The notes: generated by a model from the letters alone, not told the origin. A stretch of DNA of 64,000 nt from Phoronis australis (GCA_002633005.1 NMRA01000128.1:237165-301164); one strand, 5' to 3'; shown: positions 36,701 to 63,500, numbered from the stretch's first letter. Program-made: numbers and translations.

Positions 36701-39700
36701 ATCTTTCTTTTTATTTTGCTAAATATTATTAAAATACATTGTAAGGTGACCTAATTAATGGCAGACTAGTATTAATCATAAATAAAATTGTATTGGGCTT
36801 TCTACTTTTGAAGTACTTTTACTGAGTTAAATGCAATAATTTTGTAGATTACTGACTACCGTAAATGCACAACTTGTTGATAAGGTTATGCAGTTACATG
36901 TATTTTGTATTTTTCTGCCCGTTCAGGAAGATGTATTGCTTGACGTTCTCGGTCTGTCTCATCAGTACGGCTTCGTCGACCTTGAGACATCCTTGTCCGA
37001 GTATCTGCGTGCCTCGCTCAACACACGCAATGTGTGCGCCATCTATGACATGGCAAACATGTTCGGCCTTACCCACCTTGTCAATACCTGCTGTGAATAC
37101 ATGGATAAGAATGCCCAGGACATTGTACAGACAGAGAACTTCTTGTTGTTGTCAAAGGTATTTGAAACAAAAGTGGTTATTATATGGAATTTATATGATA
37201 TGTACTGATCAGATGAGGGTACAGTCTTGACTTGACTCGATACTCAAAACATAACCAATCATGCCGCATTATTCAGGTACAAATTTATGTTTGCTTGTGC
37301 CCTGCAGTTGGTCAATTTTCCAGCCCAATTCTCTGAGTGACTGTATCTCATTAACCCCTTGAGTCATGGCCTTGAAATTACGCAGACGTGCTCCTATCAA
37401 GGTGAAATGGCTGACACTGTACAATTATTGGTTTTCAGACCCAAAAATCTGATAATGACTGAGGCTTCATTTAGGCTTTCAATTGCATGTCACTCGTTCA
37501 GCCAGTCACCTTTCATTGTTTTACCAAAAAACGTTCAGAATTATGTGGAATATAGATGGGAACAATATGTTTTTGCAAATATGCCACACAATGGCCATTT
37601 TGAATGCAGTTTCAAGCTGTGTGTCAGTTCCGTATGTGTGCATACGCTAAAGTGCATGTAAGTGACATGTGAGCATTTTAGCCTTCAAATACACACCGTT
37701 TGTACTGGACTGTGATGGAGGGAACTGTGATGCCTTGATTAGACTAGCATTAACCAAGGTGTTTTACAGTTATTTAACAAATGCGACATCAGAATTTGGT
37801 ACATGTCTTACGTTAAAGGATCATTTTTGACAGATGTGTTTCTGTTGAAGAAGGCATGGCTGAGTTTGATTTTTGGATGTATCAGATCAGTACCCCCTAG
37901 TGGCAGTTTCGATTTTTTTCGCATCTGCTTCAGTCTCTACTGTGTTGGTTAATGAATCTATGAATTATGGGGAGATGTTCAGCATCAAGGATTGGATAGC
38001 GATTCCATGCTTTTTTCTATGTCTAATAATAAATTCAGCGAAACAGTAGAACTCACATTTATTTTCTTAATTGTCTAATAACGCATCTTCTTTCTCTATT
38101 GCAGTCATCTCTTCTTGAAGTGATAAAGAGAGACTCTTTTTGTGCCTTTGAGATTGATCTGTTCAAGTCCTTATGCGAATGGTCTAAGAAGAATCCTGAA
38201 GTGGACACCGATGACATCGTGCAGGAAATACGTCTGCCGCTCATGTCCTTGCACGACTTGTTGAATATTGTAAGACCTTCTGGTTTGATCCCAGCTGACA
38301 CAATCCTTGATGCGATAAAAATGCAGACGGAGTGCCGAGACATGGAACTGAAGTACAGGGGATTCCTCAGTAAGTTATTGTGACTGAACTTCAACAGGAG
38401 ATAATCTTTTGCCTTTTGTATATTGTCCTAAAGTAGTTGTGGCAGTAGTCACTTACATGGGCCCGGGATTTTGAGAACCAGTTTGATGACTGTTATTGAG
38501 TGGAGAAAAAACTGGTTCTCAAAATGCGGGACCCTGTAAGTGGCTATTACTGTAGTTGTTATTACTCATTTACACATTTTTTGACTAAATGTTCTAAAAT
38601 ATAAGCGTCAAATGTTCCCAATGTTAAAATATCATGTCTATACTTTGTGTTGCTCTCAGTTCCAGAAGAGAATGTAGCTACACTGAGGCACGGCGCCACT
38701 GTGATTCGAGGGGAGTGCAAGAAGGCCCTTCTGGACGGAGATATCCAGAACTATGACCTGGACAGGGGCTTCACTCGTCACCCCATCGACGATACCTACA
38801 GTCAAGGCATAGTTATCCGTCTGGGACAACCCACCATCATTAACACCATTAAGATGCTGCTTTGGGATAGAGACATGAGGTAAGTCACGTGACTTATGTG
38901 GGGATGGACTGAGTTCTGGTATTTTAAGTCTTTGTTTTAGGTCAGTATATTATATATGGGCCCTGACCTACATTGATATGGTTAAAGGAATAGTACCTAG
39001 TTCTTTAATTGTTAGACGAGATTTAAAATTGCTCAGATTAAATTTTAATTGGCAGTTAACGTCCAAGACTGGCAGTTGCATTTTTCCTACATGTAGAATG
39101 AACAGCAGAAATTGTGATTAATTCATCGTGTTTCAAATGCTGTTGACTTCATATATTATTTTCCAAAGCACATTTTCATATTTGATTGTATGGATTCCCT
39201 TAAAAGATATCCCAGTTGATGTTTGTCAGAATTGTGGCCTTTTGAACTCTGGAAATGTTCATCATTCTAGTCTTCTTCTTTATAATGAGTTATTGTATTA
39301 ATGTACCTGTAGGTCGTACAGCTACTACATTGAGGTTTCTATGGATGACAAGGATTATGTTCGTGTTGTTGATCATCAGAATTACCTGTGTCGGTCATGG
39401 CAGAGGCTTCATTTCAAGTCTAGAGTGGTCAGGTAATGTAGCTGACACCATAGAAGGCATTTGGAGTGACAGACTTTCATCGGAGTCCACATTTCATTAC
39501 TGTAATGAAATTTATTATCAAATCTCTTGGGTGAGATCCTAAAACTAAAGTCCTAATAGTCACACTGTATTTGTTGTGTTAAGTCATGCAAAAGTAGTTT
39601 TGACTGATTCCTAAGGTGTGCTAATTCTGGCTTCCTACTTGTAGACATCTAGCAGTGCTAGATATTACCTGCCTTGCAAGTACCATTTAGTGCTGAGCAA

Positions 39701-42700
39701 TCTGCCATCTGTGTTCTAGCGACATGAGGAAAGTGCTCATTAGAAAGGTCACCAACTGCATGTTGGTTTGGACACAGTTGTTGCATTTCATTTTTCTCAC
39801 TTGCAGATATGTCCGTATTATTGTGGTTACATTTCATTTTTCTCCCTTATAGGTATGTCCGTATTATTGGTACTCATAACTCGGTGAACAAAGTATTCCA
39901 CGTGGTTGCCGTTGAATGTCTCTATCTTAACAAGACATTCCAAGTTGACCGAGGACTTCTAGGTACGTTGTCATTTCCGTTCCAAAATGAATTTCTGACT
40001 TCGTTTACAAATTTTTCTTGTCAAAGCAGCTATGAAATATCGTTCATCACAAAGATAAGCTTTTGGTTTAGACCACTTAACTTCATGGAATTGATCTCAC
40101 ATTGTTCTTTCGTCAAATTGGTGGGGATTTCAGGGCCTTGAAAAAATTGGCATTTCATTTTTGCTTGACAGGATACCAAACCCTGTTTTGGTGATTTCAA
40201 TCAAGGGCTTGTTCTGCCACTTCCTAATGCATCACTGGCATGATTAAAGCAAAATTCAAGTAAAAATTCGTACCATCTCCAAGTCACAAATTGGACATTA
40301 TGGTCTTCCGTATAGTTGTTGTGTAACTCGCCTAAAGTATATGTCATGCTTCACCCCTTTAGCAGACTTTGTAAGGAGTTTTACTCCAAATTTTTTAGGG
40401 TTATCCAGGGTTACAGAGCATTATTTTGTGTCAGAGAACTGTATGGGAAAATTGTTTTCAATATGTGTTAATAGGCCAAAACCAGGTTTTATATCCTTAA
40501 AGACTAGGTTCTAAAATTTGGCATGTCACTGTGTGTCATTTCATGTCAGTTCTTTGCAAACCCTTAAATCACTTGTCATTTTATAGCGGCAATTGGTATA
40601 AATCGAATGTTGTTGTATGTAACATGACTTTATAGCCACTTGAAATATTTCTTTTGGAGATTAAGTGTTGACAGTTTTGGAAATTGACGAACAATGAGTT
40701 AGTAGGATTGTAATATATGGGACATATATGGTACAGTCCTAGCTGACAATGTGTTAAGGTTTGAAAGTTTCTCTATTTTTATGCTAAGTCCAGTCAACTT
40801 AGTAATTTTTCTATTTTGTGCGCACGCACATACACACTCGTACGCAATGTTACTGTTGTTTATGATCCTTCAATTTTGTTAATTTTGTGTCACAGTCCCC
40901 ACTGAAAATGTGGCCACTACGAGTATGAGTGCATGCGTGATAGAGGGCGTCAGTCGTAGCCGCAATGCGTTGATCAACGGCGACACCAGAAACTACGACT
41001 GGGACTCTGGTTACACTTGCCACCAACTGGGCAGCGGTGCAATAGTGGTACAGCTGGCGCAGCCGTACATATTAGGCTCCATGAGGTGTGTTCTTCTCTT
41101 TCATGGTCTTCAAATTTAATGATCTTGACACATGTTAACCGTAGAATGTTTTGATTACCTTGGTTCACGTGTTTCAAGTAAGCAGGCCTTAAGTCCATAT
41201 CACAATGTACATTCAAGAAAACAAGTGCAAGTTTAAGTGCAGCCTGCCATTGATAGTGGCTAATGAAGTGAATAATATAGGCATTTTCCGATATAGTGAC
41301 ACTAAATGGCGATAAGTTAGTTGGTAGCCAGCATTTTGCATTCTTGTGTGGATTTAATGTAGGGGGATAGTTTCCAGTATTTCTCAAAAATGCTTTGCAA
41401 CCATCAATTGCCACTGTTGTGTGGTAGGATATCTTAATGATTCTGAGAAAAATGTCTGTCTTAAAATGTCTGTGAATGACAGCAATTACCATTTGTCCTT
41501 GTCAACTCTACTAATCTTGCACACCAAAATTAGAAGCTGGGACAAGCAAGAGACACAGCTGTGTGCTCTCACAATGTTTAACTTTTAAATGTGGAATGCT
41601 TGCTACTATTTGTTTAAAGTGGTCAGTTAAAAGTGACACCTGTGGGTAAGTTATCACTGTATCGACTGATGGTTGGAATTGCTCTGTGTAACTGATCAAG
41701 TAAAGTTTGTTTTTACCTCTTCTTTTTAGATATGCATATGTGTATTTGTCAATTTATAATTACTGTCCCCGAAAAGTAATCTGACAGAATACCATTTCCT
41801 GTCGTGACTGCTTATTCTTTAACTGCAAAACTGACTGGTAATAACCACTGGGTGCTTCTCTCAATTAGGACCCAAACTTTTGCTAACAATTTTTTCTTCT
41901 ATTTAAAAGCTTAGGGTGCGAAACTTTGCGTTAAACCTGCTTAATTCCATAGCGAAAAAATGCTGTAGCACGCTCTGCAAAAAGATTGTTTAGCGCTACT
42001 TATCAACATTATTTCGGCAGTGTGTCAATTTTACATGCGACGAATGTATTCCATAGAGCAGCACATGTTTTTTTCTGTTTTGAAAGGTGCATTGAGTTGT
42101 GATGAGAAGCTGATGGGGGACATTTCCAGCACGTATTGTAAAAGTGCTTGAATTCATAGTTGAAATACTCAGTTAGCTTATGTTGTCAGCTTAACTAGAC
42201 CATCTTTACAGACATTATTTCATGCCTCCTCACGCTTCATTGGACTGAATGCAATAAGCATCGGGGAGAACTACAGGCGAAAACACTAGCATTAGGAAAC
42301 ATTCAACATCAGCACAAGCTCAATACATAAAACTGGCGGTATACAAAATTTGAAGTTACTGCCTCAATTGGAGAAGAATTATCAGCAAAAATTTGGGGCC
42401 TGTTTCGGGATAGTGGCAAAATTCTTATTACAGAAGTGTGTAGCTACCTGACTAACTTTCCTATTGATTCCCCTTCAGTCTTGGTCTTGGGGACGTTTCT
42501 CTGTCAGTGAATTCGGCTTCCACCGAGCTGTCATGACAGAGAATTCTGGGTAATTTTGTTTGAACACTTGGCTTGTACTGTAACTGCAAACGGCAGTTGC
42601 TGCACATGCAACGAGGAGTGTTCAGTTACAAGGAGGTTAGTTAAGAAAACAGAACAGGCATTTGACATACTGTCTGAACAAAAGAAATGGTGTTTAAAAG

Positions 42701-44158
42701 AATCACAATCAGTATTGGCTTGTATTTTCACTGTATTTATGCATGTGCCTTCACTTCAGGTTGTTGTTGTGGGACTGTGATGATAGGAGTTACAGGTTCA
42801 CAATAGAGGTCTCCACCGATCAGCTTAACTGGAAAATGGTAGCTGACAAGTCAAAAGAAGACTGCAAGTATGTCATTGTGTTCGTCTTTTTGGATAAAGT
42901 AATCTTGAAGTACACACTCTGCGCAGAAAATTACTTTACACCTATTGAACAGTTGAACGTTAAAAGTTCTATAAACCGTGCAATCAATCACTTAACAAGT
43001 TGTGGTCACATGCTGAATTTTGATAATTTAAAGATTTCAGATCTTGGTTAGTGCAAGTACTTGTAATGAAAAGTTCTCAAGTTACAAAATTTTTAAATGT
43101 CCCCTCAACAGAGCGACATCATGTGATATCTTATTATTTATCTGAATCTCCTTGTATTTTGTCCGCACTATATTGTGACATTTCATTCACTTGTTGGTGC
43201 AGCCAACACACGGTTCGGAATTGATTTTGCCAAACATATCTATAATTTCATATCAAAACATTGGTTACAAACTTTCCATTGTTGTTACCATTGAATTTAC
43301 ACTTTCTTCCCTTACTGCCCAAAACACTGTATCAATAACATATTCCGTATTTATATATTCTGAACAGGAGCAGCTAATTGGATATTTTTGTTTTGCCGTT
43401 TTGCCTTGTGCTTTTGAGTAAGTTGGTTGATAAAAGTTGCTCATTTGTTTTAACAACACTCTTTTGTAGGTCCTGGCAGCTGATTAGGTTTCCTAAGCGT
43501 CCTGTGACATTTATAAGAATAATTGGCTCTCACAACACAGCTAATGAGGTAAAGAAGAAATCTCTTAACGTCACGTGTATCACATGAAACTTCCACGAGC
43601 GAAATTTCATTCTGTTGGTCAGAATATTTGTTGAGAAAAATCATCAAAATTTTTAAGTTGATCCCCTTTGTCAGCTACCCCCGTATCTTAATTCTTTCAG
43701 CAAAATTGTGTTGTTGCTGACCACAGCGAGAATCGATTTCAGTCACGAAACAACTGACCTTTTTCAGTTAAATACACGTTGTAGATGTTCCTCTTTGTAA
43801 AAATATGCTTTCTGATATAATAAGTAACATGTTGCAAATTGTGAATATGCCTCTTAACTGCATTACTGGTTTACTAAGTACATGTCTCCTGTAATTACGA
43901 GAATTCATGTTAGTTGCCAAAGTTCACTTACTTCCCTACCTACAGGTTTTCCACTGCGTACACTTTGAGTGTCCAGCTGTCTCAGACGACGACCTTCAGT
44001 CGTCCGTTGACCTTGATGATAGTTATGGCGAACCAGTCAAAGATAGCCTTAGTTCATCCAGCTCAGATGATGGTAGCGCAAACAACGCGGGACAGGACCA
44101 ATCGAACAAAAGTGCTTCACTGAATATGCAATTGGCTCGTAGTTTGAGCCTAGCATAG
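33781..44158 (+). CDS. BTBD9: BTB/POZ domain-containing protein 9 (BTB-BACK plus two F5/8-like domains), ~618 aa, 11 coding exons
   Basis: Exons: 33781-33965, 35716-35851, 36927-37157, 38105-38369, 38660-38879, 39313-39432, 39853-39962, 40896-41085, 42760-42867, 43470-43548, 43946-44158. All GT-AG, 1857 nt. Diagnostic peptides GEIDHVHHLSENIG, FPAHKVILAARSDYFRALLFGG, PEENVAT, NYDLDRGFTRHPI, SRSRNALINGDTRNYDWDSGYTCHQLGSG, HNTANEVFHCVHFECP. Confidence 0.96.
38440..38552. mobile_element. Short hairpin MITE (Tc1/mariner-like) in BTBD9 intron
   Basis: cagtagtcacttacatgggcccgggattttgagaaccagttt / aaactggttctcaaaatgcgggaccctgtaagtggctattactg|ta form an imperfect ~42-bp inverted repeat. Confidence 0.75.
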
Positions 44159-46050
44159 TCAGACAATGAATCTGTTGGGTGGGTGAAGATGATGCATGCG
44201 ATTTTTTGAATCTTAACGTGCAACAAAATTTGGTGAAAACTGAAAATTCAAAAGTGATTTTACCAGAGGTTTACATAGTAATTCTTTTCTGGAAGATTTT
44301 TGACTTTAGTGGGTTATGAATTGCAACCCGTGGCTTAGTTGATCTGTGGTGATTTAATTACCTCTATTTTTCTTGTCTTTAAGTTTTCATTTGTGGTAAG
44401 GAATTTTTATTCGATCAAAATAAAAAAGAATGGAACACAGAAATAATGCCCTTTTCTCTGTGTTTTTGGAAAATGAACTTGCAACTGGTTCTGAGTAAAA
44501 TTATTTGCAATTAACCTGCCTTCCCCCAGAAAATTTTAATTTTGATTTAAACCACTAGGTGCCGCTATAAAAGTGGTCTTGACTTGTTTCTTAGTCATGT
44601 GAGAAGTGATTTTTGGTCTTGTAGAGAAGTTTATGTTATACCTTAAGATCATGCGTGGCGTATAAATTGACATGCTGTGACAAATCAAGTTGTAGACCCA
44701 GGTTTCAATCAATAATTATTTGTGAGTGCTGTGCCAGCCCAGAAATGACACCTAATTTGACTAATGTGCTGTTTGAGACCAATTTCATCATGGCAGGTGG
44801 TCTGAATCAAAAATTTATTTTTTGTGTTGGAAAGCAGGTTCATAGCTACTTCAAGGCTGAACACTTTTATTATTTCTAGGGTTACGATGTCATGTAAATA
44901 TTGTCTATTATTTATTTGCAGTTGAGGGATTTATTTATTGGCAACAGTGTTCGGTTTATGCAGTTTTATTATTCGAATTTCCTGCTAGTTGAACTTTTGA
45001 TTCAAAAGTACCTCTCAATGGGTGGAAAATGATGAGATTGTATATCACATAAAACAGCAAGTTTTGGACAAAATTTAGCATTTAGTCAAATGATTCTTAA
45101 GGCTCTCAGAGCATTGGATTGTTTGTGTATTATTTTTCTACTGAGGAATGTTAACTGTTAATGCTTTGGCATGTATTAATTTACTGCTAATAAATAGTTT
45201 GTTTTGTAATAACTTTGTTTATTTTGGAATAGCTATTATTAATTTCAGAAATGCTCTCCGGGAAATATTTGGTCCAGCTGTGACAACTTTCCATCAAAAG
45301 TGGTTCCATAATTTTGTTTAGATTCTGTTTAAAATCTTTTTCGTATTGTGGTATACTCCCAATGCGATTGTTTCATCGAAGGTCTAGCACATCATAGTTA
45401 CGCAGTTCATTAATGAGGTCCATGAAGAAAGTCGTGTGTTGATACTACCAATAAGTTATGCGAGTTCCGATGTTATATTCGCGTTAAAACAGCCTTGCAT
45501 TCACAGTCACGTAGGCAAAGGACCATCGTAGCTACCAGTGGTCGTATATCTGACAAAACTCTGCTACCAGTTAGTTACCTGGAACGCTATGTTTAAAACC
45601 CTCTGTTTGGCTATGAGAAGCCCCGAACTAGATTTATCTTGGGGGGGGGGCTTTCTCTATTTTTTGGACTGGTTTCGTTGGAAGGATATCTGATTGCTTG
45701 TCACCCAGTAATGGGCGTGCGATGTGGCTAAACGTTTATTGGTAACATTGTATTTATAGTGTCCTTGTTTGAATCTTCATGAAGTATTTGTAAGGAATGC
45801 TGATTAGTTGTAACAAGGTTTTTATTACTAAAAGCAGTAGTCTTACTCAGTTCACTTTCTTTTGGGGGCACATCATTCTTTCTAGTCTAGTGCTGTGAGT
45901 CAATATATCTTATTTGCAGTGCGCAATGACTGTGCGCATGACCATACTCAAACAACTTCTGTAATCACCCAAGCCTGACAGTCTGGTGTATTGATGTACT
46001 TTTGACGAGTCTATTCTTTGCATAATTAATAAGGGAAAGTAAATGCCACG

Positions 46051-49000
46051 TCATGCCTGACTCTCAGCTGTTGTAGTCCGTGCTCGGGACGAATTCGGAA
46101 CTTTTGGTAGCACCCTCTTTAGTCCTTGCAAGATACTTGCCGCGGATGGTGGTGGCGTTGCAATCCATGTTTCTATGACGACATCGGTGATCTAAAAAGA
46201 AAATCTATGTTAAAATGTCTGGAGGCCCTTACAATACAATGCAAAACTATTCCAAGTCACTCCACTGTAACAACAGGAGTACACCATTGTAGGCGACCGT
46301 GACACATGCCAGTAGAGTGACGTTACCCATCTGCTATAATAGCCTTTTTTATCTTGGTAAGAAATACAAAATAGGTCTAAGGCTCCGAGGTTCCCATCAA
46401 AAAGTTCAAGACTTATGAGTGGTCCCGGATTCTGGGTTCATAGAAAAAATGTGTCTATAGTCGATAAGCCGACGTATTTCCAGAATATCATTCCTTACCC
46501 TTACTAGCCACTGTGCCATTTTGTATTAATGTGGCATTCTTGCTTACCTGTTTTGATATTGCGTCCATTGAACCTCTGTCAACAATGTTGTTCATCATTG
46601 TTCTCATCTTATCCCCGTCACTCTCCACTAGCGTTTTGTAATCAACTTCCAGAAACATGCCTGAAAGCTCTTTGCAATACTTTAACGGGCGCTGACTGTC
46701 GCAGCGTTTAGGCTTTTCCGTGGGCCTGTTGAAAGCGTCCTGATACAGTTCGATGCGAATGCTATCTTGCTGGAAACGGTCAATCAGTATCCCCGAATCC
46801 AATATAAGAGAACTGACAGACTTTGACTCTTCTTGTTGATGTATGTCGTCATTGTGCTCACATAACTTTACAGGTTTTACGGTCGCTAATGGGTGGTTCA
46901 GAAAGTGTTCATCAATATGGCATTCTTCACAGATATTTCCCATCGTGTTCTCTTTCACTTGTCGTTTTGGCGTAGGTAGTTGTCTGCCTATAGGGGTCGT
47001 TGACCTTGCTGAACATTCTGGCATTTTTACATTGGAGCACGTTTCCGAAGTAAAAGCTTCGTTGTAGAAGCACAGCATGTCAGATTCTTCGTCAAACGTT
47101 TGTTGGCTTTTGTCATTTATGCTACAGGAAGCTAGACCTACTTTTGGCATTGTAGACTCTAGACTAGATGTCGATCCTTTCAAAGGCTGCTCGTACTGGT
47201 CACATGAGGAAGCTTCGTCTATCGTTGAATAAATGTCCTCGTCACTCAATTCTTGATCAACCTCTTTTATGCATGTGCTTAAAAAGGAGTCTGTCGTGCT
47301 CAAGTTAGAACGATAATAATCGCTATGTTGTCCGTGAGAGAAACCAGAGTCGATGCTACTGATGGATTCCCTGGTCATACGTCTAAATATTTTAGGGTGC
47401 TTTCTTGAGAACGAACCTCTTGATAAAGATAACTTGTTCTCGGCGTCAACACAAGATGGAGCATATATCGTTCTCCTGTTTCTTGGAATGTTGTGAAATA
47501 CCTCTGGAGATTTGTCATTGTCATCAAAAGGCGCGCCAATCCCACTGTCTCTGCTAACTGTGCTTAGAGTGGAATCCAGTCGACGGCATTTGGCATGAGC
47601 TGCCATATCCGCCATCAACTGAACTCCAGAGTCTACCGTCTGGTCATTTGTGGCCTCCTCCCAACACTCAATTTCAAATTCCCGTTCCTTTTGGGCTTCT
47701 AACCTTAAAGGTTGTTTCAGAACCCTACTGCTCTTTGTCGGTATAGGTGGCAGACGTCTCCTTGGCGTCTTTGTAACCTCTTTCCTTTCATCCAGTTCGT
47801 CTAGATTAATATTCGCCACTGATGTGGTATCGTAACATATCTTGTAAGCATCGAAACTCATTTTGTGTACATTTGCAATGAGACAGTCAACACTCATGGT
47901 CAATTCTTTCGATCTTGGTGTGGGTGCTACACTGAAAGGAGCACCCATAGTGGAAATGCGGGTAACTGTTGAAGGACTAACAATTGGAGATAGTTCCCTG
48001 GTATCGTTTGACAGTGTCCTTGGTTTATTGTTTGTCCTTGGTTCAAACCCTGAGTGAAGCAACACATCAATTTCCCCTTCAAGGTCGGAAAGCACCGACT
48101 CGCGGCCGGATTTTACCAATGGAATCAACGGCAACTTTCGTTTGGCGATAGGAATTTCCCACTTCTTTTTTGTAACATTGGTGTTATGTATCGGTGTGCT
48201 CGTTAGGTTACCGGGCGAGGAACTACCCGCAGCGTTTCCTGGTAAGCGTGACGTAGTCCTGACTCTATGGCGACTTAAAGACGCCACCATTTCAAGTAAT
48301 ACGAGAGAATAGGAGCGGATGTCGCCTTCGCCGTCAAATGGAGCAAGGTGACGATTCGGCTGCACTGCCTGATGCTGCGTTTCATCTTCAGTCTCTGAAT
48401 TTGAAGCTTCGTCGAAATCTCCGATCACGATTTTAGGGCATCGGTCCTGAAACACCAGTTACAAATTTTGTAAAAAATAATTTAAATTTATGCTGTTTGC
48501 TGTCGTGCCCAAAAATTCTTGACGTGTTGTTTACTTTTCGCTGGGAAGCATAACTGAAACACTCCATCCCTGTTTGAGCCTACTTTAAAGGGGATAGTTT
48601 CGAAACCCTACTTTTCAACAGTTGTTGGATAAGTATAGTAAATTAGATTCGTACAGACAAATGTTTCCGGCAAAAGGAAAATTATACTTACCATTGTTTG
48701 GTGGCCGAAGCCTATTACAGAGAGTGAACTCGACGTGAGCTTGTTGTGGAAAATACCCAACTCGTGCACGTGATGGAGTCCGTTAGCGATGTCGGAGCTC
48801 ATGGATCGAACCATGGTTTCGGTGACTTTGTCGATTTTGCTTTGAAGAAATTGGCGAAGGTTGCCATGTTTTGCATATTCCACGCAAATGAGTCTACAAA
48901 ATAGAACAAATATACACGAGGTCATTGGGTTTTCGTGAGTGAGAATTGTAAAATGTCGAGACTCATGCACAATCGGGGAAAGAGTTTTAACTAGAGAAGG

Positions 49001-52000
49001 CTAGATTGTTTAAAAGTTATTGTTCACGTTTATTTGTTCTTGAATAATAGACGAGAATTGAGGACATCACTGAGAATATATTTTACTATAAAACTAAATG
49101 AAAGTTTTTCGATCACTAAAGCTGTATCTCGCCCCGCTTAGAAATCGAATTAGGCCTTTTGCTCTCCTAACATCGTGATGGAATTCTGTTTCCGTTACCA
49201 ACAAGAACACCGAAACGATCAGCGACTCGACAGAACGCTTCAGTTTATTGGGGTTGACCAAGCCTAAAATTGCAAATTCGAAAATGGTGCATTTACGCAT
49301 TGCCTTCGTTATGACTTGAGTTGGCATCTTATCAGGCTAAGGAATCTTACAAGACCGAGAGTTAAAGGACTCCCGTTTCTAAGCCAGGCATTCACAGCGA
49401 AATCCATCTTTAAAAGGGAAATCTCGTCAACATTAATTTGGAATCACCAACAGTCTCATAACATTTCCGCGTTTTGTAACAGGTTGTGAGTACGTAGGTT
49501 TATATAGTTTGTGAGAACTTGGCACCATTATGAATTTTTCTGCCAACACATTATTTAGGACAAATTTTGTTTAAGTTCACTGAGAGCGGGTAGCTAAAAC
49601 GTGCACCGATAATTGCTTTCTCGTTGTATTTGATTGTCTCAATTTCTCTCATTGTTTTTACAATTATAAACAATGTTACCAATCATGCGAGTATGATTAA
49701 CCGATCGCTTACATAGAAAAACAAGTGATCGATAACTGATGAGGGATGTGATGTTCTATTCCGGTCTTTGTTCCCAGTTCGATGACATCGAACTCAATAT
49801 TTCACCTGGCTTGCACAATAGAATTGTTAGAATGTTACTTTCACAACATGTGTGGAGAGAATTGATTGCGCCTTTTCAACAACAAACGTTTCACGGTCAT
49901 GGCGCCACCAGAGTACAATGGATGGGACATTTCTAAATAGTTAAACCTGTGTTCAAGCCAGGCTTAACACAAAGGTTTCACATAATACATGGAAGCAATT
50001 AGACTCTATAATTGCCCCCCGATTATATAATTAATAAAGGAACCTTCTCTGCTTTGGCGTCAACAGTTCTGACGAACCATCCTGACGTTGTTGTCAGGTA
50101 CTTGTACGAGTACGACGCCAGCGACGCATTTTGCGTTCTGGAGATCTGGTTGTCCGACTGCAAACTTCAGTATGCATTCTTATTGAACGACCTCGACAAA
50201 AACAACCATGCCGGCGGAATGGGTATTATGGATTGCATATGGTCCTGCATCCGAACTTAGTACAACACATTTAGCAAATTTCCATTCCAATATTTAAATG
50301 ATTTCACTAGGTCATTACACTTTTCACGAAGACGACAACGTCTTGCACTGACCGTTCTGTGTGTGTTCCCACATACCTGTCTTTTCGATCCAGTGTCATG
50401 TCAACAGCTGCTTTGAACAAAGCTGATTTGAACTTATTGGTTTTACAAAACCACTGGCATTTGGCTACATTCTTGTTCACTTGTTGTGAAAGAATCATTA
50501 GAGCGTCCTTCTCGGTTTTCCATTTGTCGTAATGTGACCGCGAGTAGACCTTCAAAAGTCCCGTTTCTGTNTTTCGAGTAAAAAGATTGGAGACCGGGCC
50601 CTGGTTGTCCGACTGCAAACTTCAGTATGCATTCTTATTGAGCGACCTCGACAAAAACAACCATGCCGGCGGAATGGGTATTATGGATTGCATATGGTCC
50701 TGCATCCGAACTTAGTACAGCACATTTAGCAAATTTCCATTCCAATATTTAACTGATTTCACTAGGTCATTACACTTTTCACGAAGACGACAACGTCTTG
50801 CACTGACCGTTCTGTGTGTGTTCCCACATACCTGTCTTTTCGATCCAGTGTCATGTCAACAGCTGCTTTGAACAAAGCTGATTTGAACTTATTGGTTTTA
50901 CAAAACCACTGGCATTTGGCTACATTCTTGTTCACTTGTTGTGAAAGAATCATTAGAGCGTCCTTCTCGGTTTTCCATTTGTCGTAATGTGACCGCGAGT
51001 AGACCTTCAAAAGTCCCGTTTCTGTCGAGAACTCGCCAGCCCATTGGACTCGGAATAGTTTGCAGTTGGAGCTCTAAAATGAACGAAACATGTATGTGTC
51101 TTGCAATCGGTGAGCATACTTAACTAAAGCATTTCAAGTTAACTGTTAATAAATGGTCCATAGTCAAGACAATAACATTTTCTGGGAAACGATAATTTGG
51201 AACAGTTAAGGCAGTTTACGATGTCACTTACGGAGGGCAATACTACTACAATAAATACTTTTATACTGTTTTTTGTGTGCATGGTCCTGCACAGACGTGT
51301 TTAACTACAAATGGACAACTTAGTGCCGATAGGTGAATTTCTCAAACAAGTAATGAGGAATAGCATTTTTAAAAATGGAAGGCACTGTACTCACCCTGTC
51401 TGCAATTTTGATAACACTGGTGAGACTTCCAGGGGCATCAAATTGAAATCTGTGTTTTCGACCTTGAAGAGGATGGCCAGACCTAGATGCACAAAAAATG
51501 GGGCGTCTCGGTCCACATACCAAATGTAGTATAGGATGAAGAACGTTCAAACCAGACGAGTACAAAACTAATGTCCATATGACATGTTCATTCACAGGCG
51601 ATAAGAAGTAGGCGTAGCTGAAAATGGCAAGAACAGCAATCCAACATGCTGTTTCAATAAACAAAGCGATTGATATCCTTTTCGCTTCTTGAAGTGGAGA
51701 AGTCTGTTCAGATGACGACGACGAATCTCTGCTGGTTCTCAAAATGGCCGTCATGTTGCTACCTAAACCGAGTCCGATGGAAATCCATTGGGCAGCAAGA
51801 GTTGTCACGCTGAACTGCCACCCTTTTTGACCAACCAATCTCACGGGAAGGCATGTGAATGGAGTGGTATCGTTGTTATTGAATAGCAGTGAATCCGTCA
51901 GCGGCATGAAAGTTAAAAACGAAATAGCAACAAATTGAAGCAACACCACGCCAATGAAAACGACTCCATGCCTTTTTTCAGAGTCAGGTGTTACTCTACC

Positions 52001-52321
52001 AAATCTCCAAAGTAATATAAGTAGCGAACCTGATACTAAAAAACACACAGTCATCTGAGAAGAAAACATGACAAAATAGCCACCAGTTTGGCACAAGATG
52101 TTGGCTTCCGTAACGTTCCATAATACGAATAACAATAGTGCCAGCCCTTGGAGGAAATAGGAGGCATCCAAAAACAACATAAAATATTTCATAACGATCG
52201 TAAATCCTTTCGGGAACGTTCCAATGCGATACACAAAAAGCAACAAGTTGCCTAGTAGTCCTAAGCTGGCCACAACACTTAGAACGTAATCCGCAACCAC
52301 TATGTCTGCTTCAACAGCCAT
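46051..52321 (-). CDS. LGR/RXFP-like 7TM domain fused to a TKL (TGF-beta receptor-like) pseudokinase with large C-lobe insert, ~1136 aa, 5 exons
   Basis: Exons (minus): 52321-51395 (7TM, donor GTGAGT, phase 0), 51073-50832 (kinase N-lobe, phase 2), 48893-48692 (hinge to catalytic loop, phase 0), 48446-46548 (DFD, subdomain IX, insert, phase 0), 46191-46051 (subdomain XI, TGA). All canonical GT-AG, 3411 nt, no stops. 7TM: LLGNLL, CQTGGYFVMFSSQMTV, TCLP, GWQFS, AKRISIALFIETACWI, HPIL. Kinase: LLKVY, WKTEKD, VEYAKHGNLRQFL, DIANGLHHVH, HNKLTSSS, IGDFD, RHLAP, DIRSYSLVLLEM, ETW...PPSAASIL. Confidence 0.82.
50146..51025. repeat. 425-bp near-identical direct duplication flanking N at 50571 (probable haplotype-overlap assembly artefact)
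   Basis: 50146-50570 vs 50601-51025 differ at about 3 substitutions; copy 1 ends exactly at the N. Confidence 0.9.
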
Positions 52322-55300
52322 ATCTTTTCCTCGTTGCCTTAAATAGTCCTATTTTTTCATATATATTTCACGCGGACCGTCAAAGGTTGCGCGCTGCACG
52401 TTATAGTTCCCGACGCCGTGTATCCGGCACAATAATTGACGGTAGTCATCGATGGTATGTACATTGTAATGTTCATCAGACATGCAGTATCGACCAACCT
52501 GCAATCACAAATCAATGCGACGTGTTTATGGTACTGAGAAAATATACAACTGATTCGCAACAGGATAAAGACTACTTTTTACATTTCCTAGAATTCGCAA
52601 TGCCTGATTCATGAAGTTATCTTTTTTGAAACTTTGCACGGTGTTAAAAAATTACAAGACCAATACCCAATATTGTGTGAACAAAGTGCAGTGATGGTTT
52701 ATTTCTTTGCCATTTTGAGTAAAACAGTTACGTTTCACCTAAACAAATTCACGAATAAATTACACGATGTATGAATATTTCTCCACAGAAGTGCAGATCG
52801 TGATAAGCAATTATAGGTTTAGAAATCTACTGTGGCGCGAAATTGTTGGAATTAATTATGTGGTGCACTGTTAAACTTTGGACTGGTTATTTTATGAATA
52901 GAACAGCAGTGTATTAATGAATAATTCCACAAAAGCACGTCACTATACCATAAACATACAGTGACGTCTCGTTCGAATTAGAAAATGTTGCAACTTTCTG
53001 GTGCCCTAGCTTATCACTAAAGCGGACGCTAAAAATGCACACCACCTAACGCATGACACCGACTTTGTTGTGTTTCACCGGAGTTTACTTTGACTAGTTA
53101 TTGGTACAAAATACCTATTGATAAATAAAATGAAATAAAACGGCAGCAGTTCTGTCATAAAAACAAAACAACTCAATACCCTCAAAATTGAAATTAAAAT
53201 AAAACATTATCTTGATGTTGAGACTTGAGAGTACCAGTGCACGCAAGCACAAAGTCAAATATTCCAAAATTTCCTCGATGTATGATCTCTTTGCAAAACT
53301 CACCTGTCCCATACATATGCTGTATACTAAATCGACACCTGAGTTGTAGCAGAGCGATCTACACACGACTGCTAACGTTCATAGACTACAAGCACCTAAG
53401 CGACAACTCGGTCCATTTGATAGATGTTGATCTCCGAATATCTTTTGAACCCTTTTAGTTTGCTCACACGTCATTACGGAATATACGACAAAGGCGTAAG
53501 AGTTATACGCTTATAATAGGCGCGTAACAGCCTATCGACCAATGATTAGGGATCCCGGGAAGAATTAATGGGCGTGGATAATTGCACGATATAACATGTT
53601 GACGACTTCTGTGGGCAACATGTAAAAGTTTTATGGATTTAATATTTAAATCAAACCTCTGGTGACACAGAACGTCGCTCTGGTAATGCTCGCAGTGTGA
53701 GGGAGTTTCGACAGTACAATGGATATTTATGGCGCAAGTCACTTGTGCACCTTTCCAATTACGCGACTTGTTTTGACTAGTTTCCAACTACTAATGCCTT
53801 CTCTGAGAATGAAAAACAAAATCGGACATAAGTGTCTATGCTGTATGTTCAATAAATATCATTTTCTTTGTATTAGTAATCATTTGGGGTATTACAACAT
53901 TGTCAAGACATTATGTCAAACTTATTTACTCCTAAAACAACCTACAACAGAATTTTACCAGATGTTGGTCATTTTAAGGTGATGAGCAATATTCATTACC
54001 AGGGACCGAATTTCTTTATTAACTTTCTCAGGTCAATATTAGAGAAGTTCAACTATACAAATTTAAAATCCTTGATCGTCATAAATTATGTCTTTTAATC
54101 GTTCGCTGTCAAAAATGAAGACGTTAACATTCCTTAAAAAACAGAAGTCTTGACGTTTGACAGCCGAAGTCTCGGACTAAAAAGGCCTTAAAAAATCCCA
54201 GACATACTTCTGTAACTAATAGAATTGAGAAACATAAGTTTGTAAGTTTCCTGTGCAAAACAGTGTTTGTGGAAAATACGGCGATCTCCGTGAAAAAAAC
54301 GCAGTCACGTGATTACGAACATTTGTGAAGTGCTTTCGCCCCCATAACGTTCTGTGATGATCAAGGATTAAAAGTTTACAGTTTTACAGACCTACTATTA
54401 AGATTTTAAAAAATCCTTTGAGAAATTCAATCCTTGGTAATGAAGGCAGCCTATAATCTTATTACTTGTGGTATTTATGGGCAGCGTAACCTGCAAACAT
54501 TGTTTAAGAATAAAAAATGCTATTTAATAAATTCAATCCCATTTGAAATAAAAATCAATCCTATTTTGTAAATTGAATGCTATCCAATCAATTCAATCCT
54601 ATAAGTAAGTGGCAGAAATTGACGGGAATATGTCTTTTAAAGATAACCAAAGATCTGTACATGTGTTTTTTTCTAAAGGTAACATCAAAACCGGCTCCTT
54701 TCTCCCTAAAGTCCAAAAATTGTTTGGGAAATAAATTCGATCTTTGATAACGAAGGCAGCCTGTTACCTTAATTGAAGCTTGAAATTCATTTCAATTTGC
54801 TCGCATTTGATTTTTTTAAACCAGCAAAAGTACGTTCATATTGGCCACGACACAGTGTGAGTAAAAGTTCTACAACTGGAATACGACCTGACTTTGAATC
54901 TTTTATAAAACACAGAAAGTCTACCGAAAAACAAATAAACACATTTACTTAGTAAAGGTAATGATGACGTTACTGACCCAGAAACCACCGACTGTTAAAC
55001 GCTGATCATAACTTCAAGAAGTTGAGGTCGAGTTTTGTATCAACAAAAGTACTATACGGGAAATAAATAGGTGTGATATCAAAACAAGTCTTAGCGGAGT
55101 TATCTTCTAAGTAAACAAGTTGGTTCTGAGAAGAGCTACATGTTTAGGACGGATATTATAACGAAAGCAAACAGTTTAAAAGCATATTGCTATGACGTAA
55201 TGGAAGCTCCTGGGCATCTCCATTTAAACGTTGTTGTTCCAGTCAACCTTGGCTTTGATTGGCGGTCCACCACATTTGGCGTTTAATGGACAGATATCAG

Positions 55301-55796: not shown

Positions 55797-58374
55797 ATGA
55801 TCGGTAAGTAGGAATAGTCTCAAATAAAAAATATCGTCAGGTGATGAAACGAGACAACTTTACTCAGGATTTAACTGTTCACATCCACTGTACTATGTTG
55901 TCTATCACCTCACCACTGAGGGCAGGTTCCAACTCAACGTGTCGAGCAGTTTCCCGTCTCAGTGAACATGTAAGTAAAACGGTAATGTATATCCACAACG
56001 TCGCATTGACAAAAAGAATTAATAATGGGACGTCATTTGTTACCATGCAGCGTATCGAAAAGCACCAGACAATTTGTTACTTCAAAAAATGCGATAGTAC
56101 TGAGGTTCAGGTGCGTGATTCAGAGTCAGGAGCGCATCACCTGCACTGGGTATACCTACACCTGGCTCAGTAAAAGTCGAAGGAAAGGGTTTTAATGACG
56201 ATGGTCCTGCAAGCGAGTTTGCTTCCGCTGTCCGTTGATGCAGCAGACAGTCCTACTGAACCATAAGGTTCAAACAAACTGTTATGTTTAGGTATGCTTG
56301 CTATAAGGCAGCTGATCCAGGTTATTCCTGGACACTTCAACCTAACTCGGCACCGTAACATCACAGGCCACATATCATGTTCATTGTGTCTCAACTTTGG
56401 CTTGGAGGCCGAGACTCCTCAACATCTGTGGTGGAGATTTCCCCTGCCTACAATAGACACCGTAATTTACTACTTGGTGGACATTAGTTCATACAAGTTT
56501 AGTCTTTCTGTCTTTCAGTGCCACAAACGGGCAGATTGGAAGATTTTAGCCATGAGGAATCCGGTGATGTCGTGTCGCTATGAGTCATAATCAGGCCGGG
56601 TGATAATGGGCCCGGCCTTGTGACCTAAACACGCCTGATGTACCTCAAAAGGCATCGGGCCACCTGCACCTTTTTTGAGTTTGCTTCCTCTGTCAGCCTC
56701 GCACATCCCCTACGGGATGGATAATGTGGTTTCAGTTTATAATGATCTGAGCGACATGATTTTAATATTAATTATTTATATTAATCAGCACAATATGATT
56801 TTAATCATTACAATAATTATAATTACGCGCGTTTAGTTTCAGCGGTTCGAGGATTCCAGGCCCTGGCCATCGCCACTTTGATAGCGGTCAATATGGTGGA
56901 GTCCACGTGTCCGGGAGGGTGCGAGTGTAGCTACGAGCGTGCACAGGTGTATTGTTCCTACGTTACTAGGGTACCAACGCGGATTCCTGCAGGAACTCGC
57001 CAACTAGTCATCTACGGTGGCAATATACAGGCCATCGATCACAACGACATGATCGCTGTCAGGGACGTCGAAGAGCTCATTATACAACACACAGGGCTAG
57101 AACTGGTTGCGCCGGGGACATTCCAGGGGTTCAACAGGTTGAGGAAGTTGGACTTGTCAAAAAACCTGCTTGAAGTTGTGGACGACTATTCCTTTGTAGG
57201 ATGTCCAAGTCTTACACATCTTGTACTTTTTGAGAATAGGATTAAAGTGTTGCGACCTCGTGCATTCTACAACGTATCGACTTTAGAAAGACTGGACCTC
57301 TTCTCGAACAATTTGGCAGTTATACCACGAGATATATTCCGTCACCTAACCTGCTTGACGAGAATCTCTTTAACAAAGAATATTATAGAAACAATTGAAC
57401 CAGGCGCTTTCAGAGGAGTGGAATCTCTGACGGAGTTAAACTTGTGGGACAACCGGTTACAAGACATACCAGTTGACGCTTTCCTTGGACTAAAACGTTT
57501 AGAAAAACTAGTCCTCAAAAGGAATATCCTAACGTCTATATCCAGTGGCGTTTTTGTACCTCTTCGTTCATTGAGAACCTTGGATTTGAGATCAAATAAG
57601 TTAGTTTTGAGGAGTCAAACGTTCAGTTCCCTCGAGTCTCTGGAAGAACTCATGATAGGCTCAAATAGCATCTCAGAACTACCCCCGTTTGCCTTCACCG
57701 GCTTGTCAAATTTAACTAAGTTAATCATGGAAGCCAACGAAATCACAAAACTGGAAAGGGGCGTTTTCAGTGGCTTGAACCAGTTAGAGTATTTGATCTT
57801 GGATGAAAATCGAATAGATTTCATAGATGATAATGTTTTTGCGCCAATGCAAAATTTGAAAACTTTATCGGTAATGGGAAATGGGCTAAATTTGAAGGAT
57901 GGATCTATATTTAATTGTCTACCTAATTTAAATGTGTTGTATCTAGCCAGAAACGCCTTCACCCAAATTCCGGCTCCAATGAAACTACCAGAACTTAAAG
58001 TCGTGGTCTTTGCTTTCAACCAACTAAGCCGTCTTCCAGCCAAATTGAACTTGGCCAATTCCACAAAACTGGAATTCATCGAATTTTCAGGAAACAAAAT
58101 ATCCACTCTTCTCTCTGAACATATAACTGGATTCCCGCATTTGAAACATCTGGGCATAGCCAACAACAAGATCCACAAATTCAATGAACAAGACCTTAGG
58201 TTAGTGTTCTCAAAGTTGAGGTACTTAGACATTCGCGGTAACCCCATTGTTTGTGACTGTGAGGTTTCATGGTTAAAAAACTTAACCATTGATTATTTTC
58301 CTGAACCAAGATGTGCTAGTCCTCATAACAAAATGTTGTTTTCAGAAACTAAAGTGTCTGATCTTGTCTGTTAG
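55797..58374 (+). CDS. Secreted LRR-only protein (signal peptide, LRRNT, roughly 16-17 LRRs, LRRCT), ~512 aa, 2 exons
   Basis: Micro-exon 55797-55803 (ATG ATC G|gtaagt) splices to tttcag|56843-58374, giving signal peptide MIAVRGFQALAIATLIAVNMVES, LRRNT CPGGCECSYERAQVYC, 24-aa typical LRRs (LxxLxLxxNxL...F) and LRRCT GNPIVCDC...CASP...DLVC*. No TM or GPI tail. Confidence 0.92.
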
Positions 58375-59458: not shown

Positions 59459-60517
59459 TGAATATTTCCAATACTAAAGTCTACCTGTTAATAAAGACCT
59501 GGAGGTACCTGCGGTGCTTTTCTTGGGCCAAATACCCTTCACAGATGAATTGAACATGCCAAATAGGTTAAACTTAGGATCTGTGAATAACTTACTGGGG
59601 GTGTGATAGGGTGGTCACACAAACATGACCCTGGCACGTGTGATTAGTAACTGCCACACCGACCTCCTAATCAGACCAGACTTTAGCAGCAGTCTTTGAA
59701 CACTTTTAATAGCAAATAATAGAACAGTCCTGTGCTCAACCTCTTCGATGGATCTCTACTGCCGACACAATACGGCAACTTTCTCATGAAGGAAGGTTGT
59801 AACAAGACACAGCTCCACCAGTCAGCAATGCTACAAAAGCACATGAGTAGGTGTACTATGCATGAACCACAATTGTTGGACCACCATTACACAATCATTT
59901 CTAGCTCACGGGCGTACTCGATTGTCTTTTCGGCTAAATCAAAGGCTGGTACATGTTCATCTACATTCTTTTCTTCTTGGACAAAGTNTGAATATTTCCA
60001 TTACTAAAGTCTACCTCTTAATAAAGACCTGGAGGTACTTGCGGTGCTTTTCTTGGGCCAAATACCCTTCACAGATGAATTGAACATGCCAAATAGGTTA
60101 AACTTAGGATCTGTGAATAACTTACTGGGGGTGTGATAGGGTGGTCACACAAACACGACCCTGGCATGTGTGATTAGTAACTGCCACACCGACCTCCTGA
60201 TCAGACCAGACTTTAGCAGCAGTCTTTCAACACTTTTAATAGCAAATAATAGAACAGTCCTGTGCTCAACCTCTTCGATGGATCTCTACTGCCGACACAA
60301 TACGGCAACTTTCTCATGAAGGAAGGTTGTAACAAGACACAGCTCCACCAGTCAGCAATGCTACAAAAGCACATGAGTAGGTGTACTATGCATGAACCAC
60401 AATTGTTGGACCACCATTACACAATCATTTCTAGCTCACGGGCGTACTCGATTGTCTTTTCGGCTAAATCAAAGGCTGGTACATGTTCATCTACATTCTT
60501 TTCTTCTTGGACAAAGT
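59459..60517. repeat. 529-bp near-identical direct duplication flanking N at 59988 (probable haplotype-overlap assembly artefact)
   Basis: 59459-59987 vs 59989-60517 abut the N directly and differ at about 7 substitutions; duplicates most of the PSMD8 last exon and 3' UTR. Confidence 0.92.
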
Positions 60518-63500
60518 GAAAAAAGTTATCGGATCCCACAGTCCAGTTTCTCTACAAAAGAGCAACAAACAAATAGATAAAATAATTCCTATTTCAACAT
60601 AGCCTAAAATGTGGACAGACAAATGAGATGACCTTGCAGATAACCGTTATTCATGGGAAATCAAGATACCACAACCAACTGCTTCTGTCTTTGTTTTCAG
60701 ACAACACTAAAGCAACAAATACACTGCCATAAATCATGTCACTGACAAGTATGTAACAGGAAAAATATATCAGAGCCCCGCATTAATGCACAGCAATTAT
60801 GTACTTAAAGTGGGAATGAAGGGACATTCCATAACATAAACTTTTGATTTAGACCCCTTAGCAGAAAGCAGATTATTTGTCTGCGTTATGTTACCAATAT
60901 CGACCAATAATGAATATGAACGGTGAATGCATAACCAGGTAAGTAGCAAACATCAGCTTTAGAGGCTACAAACCCTTCAGTCACAAAAACCAATTTTGGT
61001 TTAGACCATGTACCATTATGAAATTGGTCGTGAATTGCTCCTTAGTCACATTTGACTTGATATCAGGGCTTGAAAAGAACCGACAGTCTCTCATTGCTCG
61101 AGACCAGGCCCTAAAAGTTGACTTGTCATAGTGTGTCATTTTATGCGTAGAGCGTGATTGGTCTTGAGGAATTAATAACTTTAAATATCTTTGCAAGCCC
61201 AGAAATCACTTGCCATCTGAACGAGGATCAACTTAATACTTGAGTTATATCAGTAAGAGGTCTAAATCAAAAGAAACTACAGTAAAAGTCAGATCCAACT
61301 AGACTACGAGATTTTATCAGTTAGTCGAAATCCGACTTACACGAAGGGCTGAGGGCACAAACAAGAACAAACATACTGTTAAAATTTGTCCGAGTTAAAT
61401 GATAGAATATTCAGCTTTTACAAGTCTGACTTATGGCAGCTTTACTGCATATAGAAGTAAAAATTCAAAAAGCTAATCAACCAATACCTGTTCAGCATAC
61501 TGCTTCATGGGCTTCTGAGAGTCAAAGAACAACATCCTAGCTGCTTCACTAAATGCGATCTTCTCATACGCCTTTTCCATGCAGTCGGCTATTTCACCCC
61601 TGGAACACATCAACGGACTAGTAACAGATATGTAAGCAAACATCGGCAGCATGTACTTCATTCAGACGACCCCTAAAAATAGTTACCCAGCCTAAAACCT
61701 GGTCACGAGCTCTTCCTTACTCACTTCATGGAGGAAGTAAAAAGAGGCAGAGTATTAGAAACAAACGCTGTTTGTTATTCATTAATTCTTTCTGTTGTCA
61801 TTGTTGTTATCCTAATCTGGATTTTGTATGTAACCAAAATTAGCAAATGTTCAGCAAAGCGAAAAGAATATCGATTGAATTTATGTGTGTGGAATTTGCA
61901 ACAAATGCTAGCCATTCATTAACTAGCAGTATCTATTTTCAAAAACTTTGGGAGTAAAGACGGTGGTTTCATGGTGATGAAGCAAGTGTCACTGGAATTC
62001 ATGTCTTTACAACACACCAGAAAACTGACCTCACTCACCTGATGGTGTTGAGTAGAATGTCCATGAAATAGTTGTAACTGTCTGCTGGTACATTCCCTTT
62101 GGCTAAAAATATCTAAAGAAAAAACACAAAATTAATGATATTTTTATCACACATTCTAGCTAACCTAACAAATAACAAGTGGCCCATACTGACTTTGGGT
62201 AATAACATAATTACATTCCTTGACAAATAGTACTTAAAGGTTATGTACAACCTTAACGACAAATCTGTACATTTAGTGATGTAACTCCAAAAGGATAACT
62301 CATCAAAAGTATATATTTCCCGAAAGTATAAAAGTGTAGAATTTGATTTTTGACTTTACACCAATCTGCCACTAACTAGTTCATGTGGCCTTGCTTTTCT
62401 CAAAAATTTTACCCAAAAAGAAAGGTAGATTCATAACAAAACAACAGGATCAATAACATGACGAAATTTTGTATGATATAAATGTTCATAAAATCAAAAA
62501 CACTGTTACAGTTTTTCTTTTATGCAATTTAAAATTTTAATTTCATAAAAATCATAAAAGTCCCAGTTTTTGATAGCCCCTCATGCAAAGTGAAACACTC
62601 AACAAACCATTCCTAACAGCGTTTTGGAGAACAGTGTATAAAGCACATTATAACACAATATTAGCGTCAAATGGCAGATACAACCGTGTAATAACCCATA
62701 AAGTTATCTCACTAGTGAGATAACGATTTGGTGGGAAACCGAGGACGGAGTCAAACCAGGGACCCTTGCATTGCTGGTTGCCGACTTTACCACTGCACCA
62801 TGCAGCAACTGACGTCATCAAGAGTGAAAATAGAATACTTAAATGAGCACGCTCAATAATCGCATGTTCAACAAACCACATTGTACTGTACTTATACGCT
62901 ACGAAAAGTAAGACAGATAATTTCCATAAAAATGATATCTTAATTCAGTGAAATTTTTCTCTCATGTCCTCTTACTTGTAAATCACCGATCTCCAGTTTG
63001 AATGCGGGTATCGTGTCGTCAGGATCTTTGACTTGAGAATTATATTCAGTTACCAGTAACCTACTTTAGCAGACGATAATTTCCCGGTCGAAGCTTAGCG
63101 TGAAAAAAACGTGTTTTAAGCTATAATAGTTGGTAAACCTTAATCTATGAATNCCCGGGCCTCTGACATAGAAAGTAGTTACAAAGCCGTGGAGAGTCAG
63201 AAAAGGTAAATCGATTCATTGCAATGTTTCTCGTTTAGTATGTGGTATAAATAGATTATTACATGTTCTCAGCCGTTATCCCCCTTATCTAGAGCCCTCA
63301 TGGATTTTGGAGAATTTTCACCCTCGGGGCTAATGCCCCTCGGGCGATAATTCTCCAAAATCCACTCGGGCTCTAGATAACGGGGGATAACGACTTCGCC
63401 ATGTAATAATCTATATGTATCTAGAAATTCATCTGAATCTGATCGGCACTGGAAGTGTTATTTGGGATTGCTTAAAATGTACTAACAGCTAGCTGTCACA

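Follow-up and report, generated by a model that had tools for sequence, protein, structure and literature searches.

A 64,000-nt stretch of the Phoronis australis genome (GCA_002633005.1 NMRA01000128.1:237165-301164), referred to here as the window, contains one spliced and expressed gene in which the seven-transmembrane (7TM) region of an LGR-derived G-protein-coupled receptor (GPCR) is fused to a pseudokinase. The 7TM region is derived from the LGR lineage and lacks the leucine-rich-repeat (LRR) ectodomain, the DRY arginine and the NPxxY motif of those receptors. Fusions of GPCRs with protein kinases are a category that has already been published, and the LGR-derived form with a split pseudokinase is a variant of this category, not a new one.

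Gene structure and transcription

The coding region consists of five minus-strand exons with GT donors and AG acceptors, which join in phases 0,2,0,0 into a stop-free frame of 1136 amino acids (aa). The first-pass annotation had proposed the same join and open reading frame (ORF), and both were re-derived with no internal stop. Its gene model began at exon 1 and has to be amended, as there is also a non-coding exon upstream. Transcription was followed in three raw stranded RNA runs from one study (X1, X2 and X3); ~18-19% each of X1 and X2 was read, and junction counts are given as X1+X2. The joint between the non-coding exon and exon 1 (52764/52498) is covered by 3+1 reads. The parts of the gene are as follows.

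52764..52950 (-), non-coding 5' exon; upstream end approximate, placed from the joint reads and from same-strand depth, which stops at ~52950
52322..52498 (-), 5' untranslated portion of exon 1, read from the sequence; in-frame TAG ~30 nt ahead of the ATG
51395..52321 (-), coding exon 1, 927 nt, aa 1-309; 7TM region at ~aa 9-270, short linker, first kinase strand at ~aa 302-308
50832..51073 (-), exon 2, 242 nt, aa 310-390; kinase N-lobe with beta3 Lys332 (51007-51005) and alphaC Glu345 (50968-50966), without GxGxxG
50146..50570 (-), assembly overlap copy, 425 nt, of 51025-50601 (3' part of exon 2 and intron), adjoining the N at 50571
48692..48893 (-), exon 3, 202 nt, aa 390-457; hinge, helix E and degenerate catalytic loop, matching PF07714 (E 7.5e-8)
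46548..48446 (-), exon 4, 1899 nt; kinase as far as helix F, insert and first part of the C-terminal block
48279..48446 (-), start of exon 4, aa 458-513; GDF motif (Asp467, 48419-48417), short activation segment without APE, helix F
46695..48278 (-), low-complexity insert of exon 4, ~aa 514-1041; Ser/Thr-rich, disorder predicted from composition, sequence not conserved
46548..46694 (-), end of exon 4, aa 1042-1090; first part of the C-terminal block, likely the kinase helix G region
46051..46191 (-), exon 5, 141 nt, aa 1091-1136; W..PP block, likely helices H-I by its motif, and stop

The earlier proposal that RNA be checked across the four coding junctions gave a clear outcome, with every junction spanned, by 19, 19, 25 and 29 reads. 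Specifically, spanning reads number 6+13 at 51395/51073, 8+11 at 50832/48893, 19+6 at 48692/48446 and 14+15 at 46548/46191. The reads that join exon 2 to exon 3 are divided between the real exon 2 (4+4) and its duplicate copy (4+7); without the duplicate copy, 6+11 reads leave exon 2 at 50832 and continue at the beginning of exon 3. The exons are covered on the expected strand in X1 and X2 and have zero depth in run X3, so expression varies between samples. The contigs of X4 do not cover the exons of this gene.

The N at 50571 lies within intron 2, and the first-pass annotation considered it unlikely to link unrelated loci. This was correct. The two 425-nt copies at the N have three mismatches, all of them intronic, and reads span the junctions. 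The near-match of the copies, together with the absence of a splice acceptor from the duplicate, indicates an assembly overlap and not a second exon. Short, high-copy repeats at 50572-50605 and 49240-49295 draw hundreds of unrelated reads on both strands, and the former probably caused the assembly break.

An upstream ORF of 46 codons (~52350-52490, minus strand) lies in the frame of the main ORF and is separated from it by the single TAG ~30 nt ahead of the ATG. It could dampen translation or serve as a read-through extension, and among the read differences listed there is none at this TAG. Because the ATG is preceded by an in-frame stop and a non-coding 5' exon, the window transcript encodes no ectodomain.

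The receptor and kinase parts

The origin of the 7TM region is indicated by both sequence and predicted structure. When a profile of 36 family 7TM sequences was compared with solved proteins, RXFP1 (2.7e-8), LHCGR (5.2e-7) and TSHR (5.8e-6) led the matches. A Caenorhabditis elegans LGR, FSHR and LGR4 likewise outranked all solved proteins outside the LGRs, and the first 15 profile rows were LGRs. This bears out the likeness to LGR and RXFP receptors first drawn from individual helices, as transmembrane helices (TM) 3 and 6 align with those of LHCGR and RXFP1 and LGRs also lead the fold searches. Exon 1 itself matched rhodopsin-class clusters of the ESM Atlas at 0.95. An AlphaFold2 model of the Lingula homolog (aa 1-512, from a 65-row alignment) has a predicted local distance difference test (pLDDT) score of 84.2 and a predicted template modeling (pTM) score of 0.72, with seven helices up to residue 282 and a kinase starting at 304. 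In a structural alignment of this model with 48,161 chains, the C. elegans LGR ranked first (Z 23.0, root-mean-square deviation [rmsd] 2.9, 242 aa). GPCRs dominate the list at Z 19-23, and many GPCRs that are not LGRs score 19-21. Structural alignment among Foldseek's top 1000 gave Z 24.1 for FSHR (rmsd 3.5, 265 aa) and 22.4 for LGR4. As modeled, the family thus has the rhodopsin-class fold, a bundle of seven helices.

The conservation pattern of the 7TM region is mixed. The cysteines of TM3 (Cys77) and of the second extracellular loop (ECL2; Cys157) are each kept in 54 of the 56 family sequences, and residues of ECL2 and TM5 are conserved. The positions numbered Asn1.50, Asp2.50 and Trp6.48 are kept in 44, 36 and 38 of the 56, respectively. 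The column of the DRY arginine is occupied by Leu in 44/56 and that of the TM7 Asn by His in 46/56, while the TM6 proline is lost across the family. Only one of the 56 sequences has an E/DRx motif close to where TM3 ends, and none has NPxxY; the crayfish GRL101 used as a control has both. The 7TM region evolves rapidly, with ~20-30% identity between phyla, and the homologs begin shortly ahead of TM1.

As the first-pass annotation had recognized, exon 1 also carries the start of the kinase N-lobe, the first kinase strand (~aa 302-308), and the ORFs of homologs agree. The linker is short, and in the Lingula model the kinase fold begins ~20-30 aa past TM7. A hidden Markov model (HMM) of the family kinase, built with the window protein excluded, gave the spliced protein 125 bits over aa 313-519, against a maximum of 3.5 for 200 shuffled sequences. 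At the canonical positions, the beta3 Lys is present in 35/36 sequences and the alphaC Glu, the catalytic-loop His and GDF in all 36. No sequence has the catalytic Asp, in whose place 33 have Asn, two have Lys and one has His; the window protein has Lys441 at this position, with His439 at 48748-48746 in exon 3. The Mg-binding Asn, GxGxxG and an APE-like motif are likewise each absent from all 36 sequences. With these four features missing, the domain is, by its sequence, a pseudokinase.

The kinase donor is TKL/TK-like and possibly STKR. Kinase-fold matches to the Lingula model reach Z ~17 over 174-195 aligned aa. Receptors of the TGF-beta family make up 30 of 45 Foldseek rows among the matches listed and have the top structural identities (20-24% vs 13-20% for others), but their Z-scores are tied with those of WEE1, EGFR, JAK and EphA3. 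The kinase sequence profile was best matched by LIMK1 (5e-8) and MLKL, and it also favored BRAF and LRRK2 over the TGF-beta receptors. Exon 2 alone gave no relevant match in the PDB. Mollusc pseudokinase regions share 47-98% identity with the scallop query, so this part of the protein appears to be under strong selection, and it is better conserved than the 7TM region.

The remaining exons had been read as supplying the kinase subdomains in order. This is true as far as helix F, but an insert of ~510 aa, which was missed earlier, then splits the domain. The insert ranges from ~510 to 1345 aa over 36 sequences and is longest in bivalves; in the window protein 65% of its residues are disorder-promoting and 20% are Ser or Thr. 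Beyond it lies a conserved C-terminal block of ~80 aa with a CW..PP pattern. A family HMM of this block, from which the window was excluded, scored 36.8 bits on aa 1042-1117, with 200 shuffles at or below 3.2. The pattern resembles kinase subdomain XI, a resemblance that no search confirmed, and the block may represent the last helices (G-I) of the C-lobe. Of the 35 homologs, 33 have a class I PDZ-type motif at the C-terminus. Judging from the terminal residues, beyond molluscs and Owenia this ending is weak or missing.

Homologs, published fusions and neighboring genes

With exon 1 as the query, an exhaustive phmmer search found 39 proteins (best E 1.8e-22), of which 30 were looked up. Five matches are long (1401-1828 aa), from Argopecten, Owenia, Pinctada, Lingula and Plakobranchus, a weak one (8.4e-6) is to a GRL101-like 7TM protein of crayfish, and most of the rest are exon-sized ORFs. 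Pfam 7tm_1 matches two of the 39, including the GRL101 outlier. Searches based on word indexes were insensitive, with no match between exon 1 and longer proteins and two proteins found with a six-sequence profile. The kinase region of the scallop homolog retrieved 48 proteins: 15 are pieces the size of exon 4, and in the other 33 the match extends over 92% or more of the region. Among the 33, 27 are named, and all of these are from molluscs.

The suggestion that the two halves be sought together in other invertebrates was well founded. Membrane helices precede the kinase in 34 of 35 long homologs (molluscs, Owenia and Lingula); the one without them carries a partial-sequence annotation, and in four of the 34 the sequence begins inside the 7TM region. 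Homologs with the same order of parts occur in bivalves, gastropods, octopus, Owenia and Lingula, and the window protein is 21-27% identical over ~500 aa to the nine that were compared. Three intron positions are common to the window gene and its homologs. The exon-1 ORFs of homologs diverge right past the first kinase strand, as at the end of exon 1 in the window; the exon-4 ORFs of mollusc homologs start just ahead of the GDF motif, so that intron 3/4 is shared; and 12 of 15 exon-4-sized mollusc ORFs read through at a GxQ site, the border of exons 4 and 5 in the window. Seven unbroken ORFs of 1309-1900 aa were found on Logan contigs of 4.3-6.8 kb, which suggests that these are spliced transcripts. 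In a quick-method tree of the 7TM region, mollusc sequences group by class (cephalopods, gastropods and bivalves), as would be expected of one ortholog per genome, and the window protein is unplaced among the non-mollusc rows.

Two annotations of homologs deserve mention. In Lingula, a second copy (P0041/P0042) shares 97% identity with P0031; its annotation comprises a kinase only, starting past TM7, and is probably a split gene model. The ortholog in Plakobranchus is labeled LRRK2 in GenBank.

Fusions of GPCRs with protein kinases have been described from several groups. According to the available part of one report, GPCR-TKL fusions occur in oomycetes and amoebozoans alone, and metazoan GPCR-kinase fusions are termed rare or non-existent (PMC5784254, 2018). 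The available part of a later one describes GPCR-TKL/K proteins in choanoflagellates and GPCR-TKs in choanoflagellates and sponges only, none of them functionally characterized, as well as acanthoecid 7TMs that cluster with no other GPCRs (PMC12716839, 2025). Several GPCR-TMKs nested in the TK clade are also recorded in sea urchins and Felidae in the accessible sections of Yin et al. (2023; PMC10463195). One of these, sea urchin XP_030855453, is given in their Table S5 as a 545-aa protein that lacks a signal peptide and has seven helices at 13-291 and a partial PF07714 match at 462-527, and it is the one entry with this topology in the 55 of 66 sea-urchin rows covered. It receives one sentence of text and is placed in the TK clade, and the accessible sections do not mention an LGR origin, a dead active site or an insert. 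The names Crassostrea, Octopus, Lingula, Capitella, Lottia and Branchiostoma were not found in the supplements of this paper.

The first-pass annotation, which was aware of PIP-kinase fusions only, had suggested an undescribed class of receptor with a (pseudo)kinase. The (pseudo)kinase and the apparent lack of a description of this family still stand, but GPCR-protein-kinase fusions have been published beyond the PIP-kinase fusions. No description was found in the literature of an LGR-derived family with a split pseudokinase and no ectodomain, although paywalled papers and unread supplements may hold one. Such a family is also unmentioned in the available parts of papers on the oyster kinome, LGR evolution, placozoan immunity and amphioxus GPCRs. 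No oomycete, choanoflagellate or sponge GPCR-kinase was named among the 30 phmmer matches looked up.

The family can therefore be set against several known systems. It resembles LGRs (RXFP1, LHCGR, TSHR, FSHR, LGR4 and GRL101) in the sequence profile and fold of its 7TM region. Unlike them, it possesses a C-terminal pseudokinase and has no signal peptide, LRR/LDLa ectodomain, DRY arginine or NPxxY. With the GPCR-TKL/K and GPCR-TK proteins it shares the architecture of a 7TM region followed by a C-terminal protein kinase, whereas the LGR-derived 7TM, the dead and split kinase and the bilaterian hosts set it apart from these proteins as described in print. XP_030855453, as far as its table entry tells, has the same topology. 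The kinase fold is that of TGFBR2, ACVR1, BMPR2, LIMK and MLKL, but in contrast to TKL/TK kinases the family lacks the catalytic residues and carries an insert of 0.5-1.3 thousand aa after helix F.

Head-to-head with the 7TM-kinase gene, and ~2 kb from it, lies an expressed gene for an LRR-only protein (56785-58374, plus strand) that has LRR caps, probably a signal peptide, and no TM within this exon. It has two alternative 5' exons, ending at ~55353 and ~55802, and its product is closest in the PDB to IGFALS and LRRC15. The idea that this gene provides the missing ectodomain is unsupported: it lies on the opposite strand, has its own 5' exons, is best matched by IGFALS and LRRC15, and is expressed in X3, where the 7TM-kinase gene is not. 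Farther away are two multi-exon genes read by eye, which look like BTBD9 (~33700-44200, plus strand; BTB/BACK and discoidin-like pieces) and an S9-family peptidase (~3400-12700, minus strand; GGSAGG motif). A second duplication of the overlap type surrounds the N at 59988 (~59720-60520), where one frame of 88-94 aa is present twice.

Proposed mode of action

The reading favored here, to which we assign a probability of about 0.55, is that the protein is a G-protein-independent receptor scaffold whose 7TM region signals via the inactive kinase. The input would be either pairing with another receptor or a peptide or small ligand bound in the extracellular pocket, where the TM3-ECL2 cysteine pair is kept; it would reach the helical bundle, which would relay the change via the ~20-30-aa linker directly to the N-lobe of the pseudokinase. 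The pseudokinase may still bind nucleotide and would serve as a docking surface or a switch between conformations. Folding back, the C-terminal block would finish the C-lobe and leave the insert looped out as a putative platform for phosphorylation and docking, and the C-terminal PDZ-type motif could anchor the receptor to scaffolds. All of these functional steps are inferred.

A number of observations weigh against this account or the gene model beneath it. A profile check had been proposed for both halves, and it gave the expected match of PF07714 to exon 3, above the cut-off, but no match of Pfam 7tm_1 to exon 1; moreover, exon 3 is the sole exon that matches the Pfam kinase model. Of the seven hydrophobic helices originally described, all are present in the Lingula homolog model, but only five exceed the threshold in a hydropathy scan of the window protein. 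The single-sequence model of window exon 1 is poor (pLDDT 43) and gave no Foldseek matches, and the modeled Lingula homolog shares just 27% identity with the window protein. Searches with the C-terminal block found neither a match as a kinase piece nor a usable one in the Atlas, and exon 5 alone found no relevant match in the PDB. The window protein ends in ESQA and that of Lingula in SQDY. Intron 1 has ~1/10 of the exon depth, by a rough estimate from binned depth, so a minor 7TM-only or unspliced form is possible. Finally, some other classes of GPCR couple without DRY or NPxxY, and the loss of these motifs does not exclude G-protein coupling.

It is thus conceivable, if unlikely, that the receptor still couples to G proteins or arrestins and that the pseudokinase and insert form a regulatory tail for trafficking, desensitization or localization. 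The intact rhodopsin-class fold is consistent with coupling, as are the largely kept Asn1.50, Asp2.50 and Trp6.48, and the Ser/Thr-rich insert resembles receptor tails. However, the family as a whole has lost the DRY arginine, NPxxY and the TM6 proline, and the kinase begins ~20-30 aa past TM7 and is better conserved than the 7TM region.

The near-invariance of the Lys, Glu, His and DFG-Asp could instead point to an atypical active receptor kinase, in which the 7TM region, or the split C-lobe as it closes, turns on weak phosphotransfer. Low activity is retained by some kinases that carry Asn as the catalytic base, such as HER3. Nevertheless, this is distinctly improbable, given that the catalytic Asp, the Mg-binding Asn, the glycine loop and APE are missing in 36/36 sequences and that the residue at the catalytic position varies among Asn, Lys and His.

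Still less credence is given to a ligand-free 7TM region acting as a membrane anchor, or as a dimerization partner of intact LGRs or TGF-beta-type receptors. The absence of an ectodomain, the rapid evolution of the 7TM region and the leaning of the kinase to the TGF-beta receptor family all fit this role, but the extracellular cysteine pair and the ECL2/TM5 residues are conserved. It also overlaps the scaffold reading, from which it differs solely in the input. Two separate genes, or an assembly artifact at the N, would explain the N-join and the duplicated exon piece inside intron 2 but can practically be dismissed, as reads span all junctions, 34/35 long homologs are fused and seven Logan ORFs are unbroken.

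Tentatively, the family may represent an old, probably single-copy class of animal receptor, an LGR minus its ectodomain and G-protein switches plus a TGF-beta-receptor-like pseudokinase as effector, in which the receptor controls the closing of a lobe whose halves lie 500-1300 residues apart. If so, a G-protein-free 7TM pathway would exist in molluscs, annelids, brachiopods and possibly echinoderms. That Pfam 7tm_1 misses the 7TM region of this family may explain its absence from GPCR inventories. As a conserved bilaterian GPCR-kinase family present in tractable animals, including Aplysia, Biomphalaria, oysters, mussels and octopus, it makes it possible to test directly whether a rhodopsin-class bundle can drive an intracellular domain with no G protein involved, and how an insert of such length is tolerated by a kinase fold.

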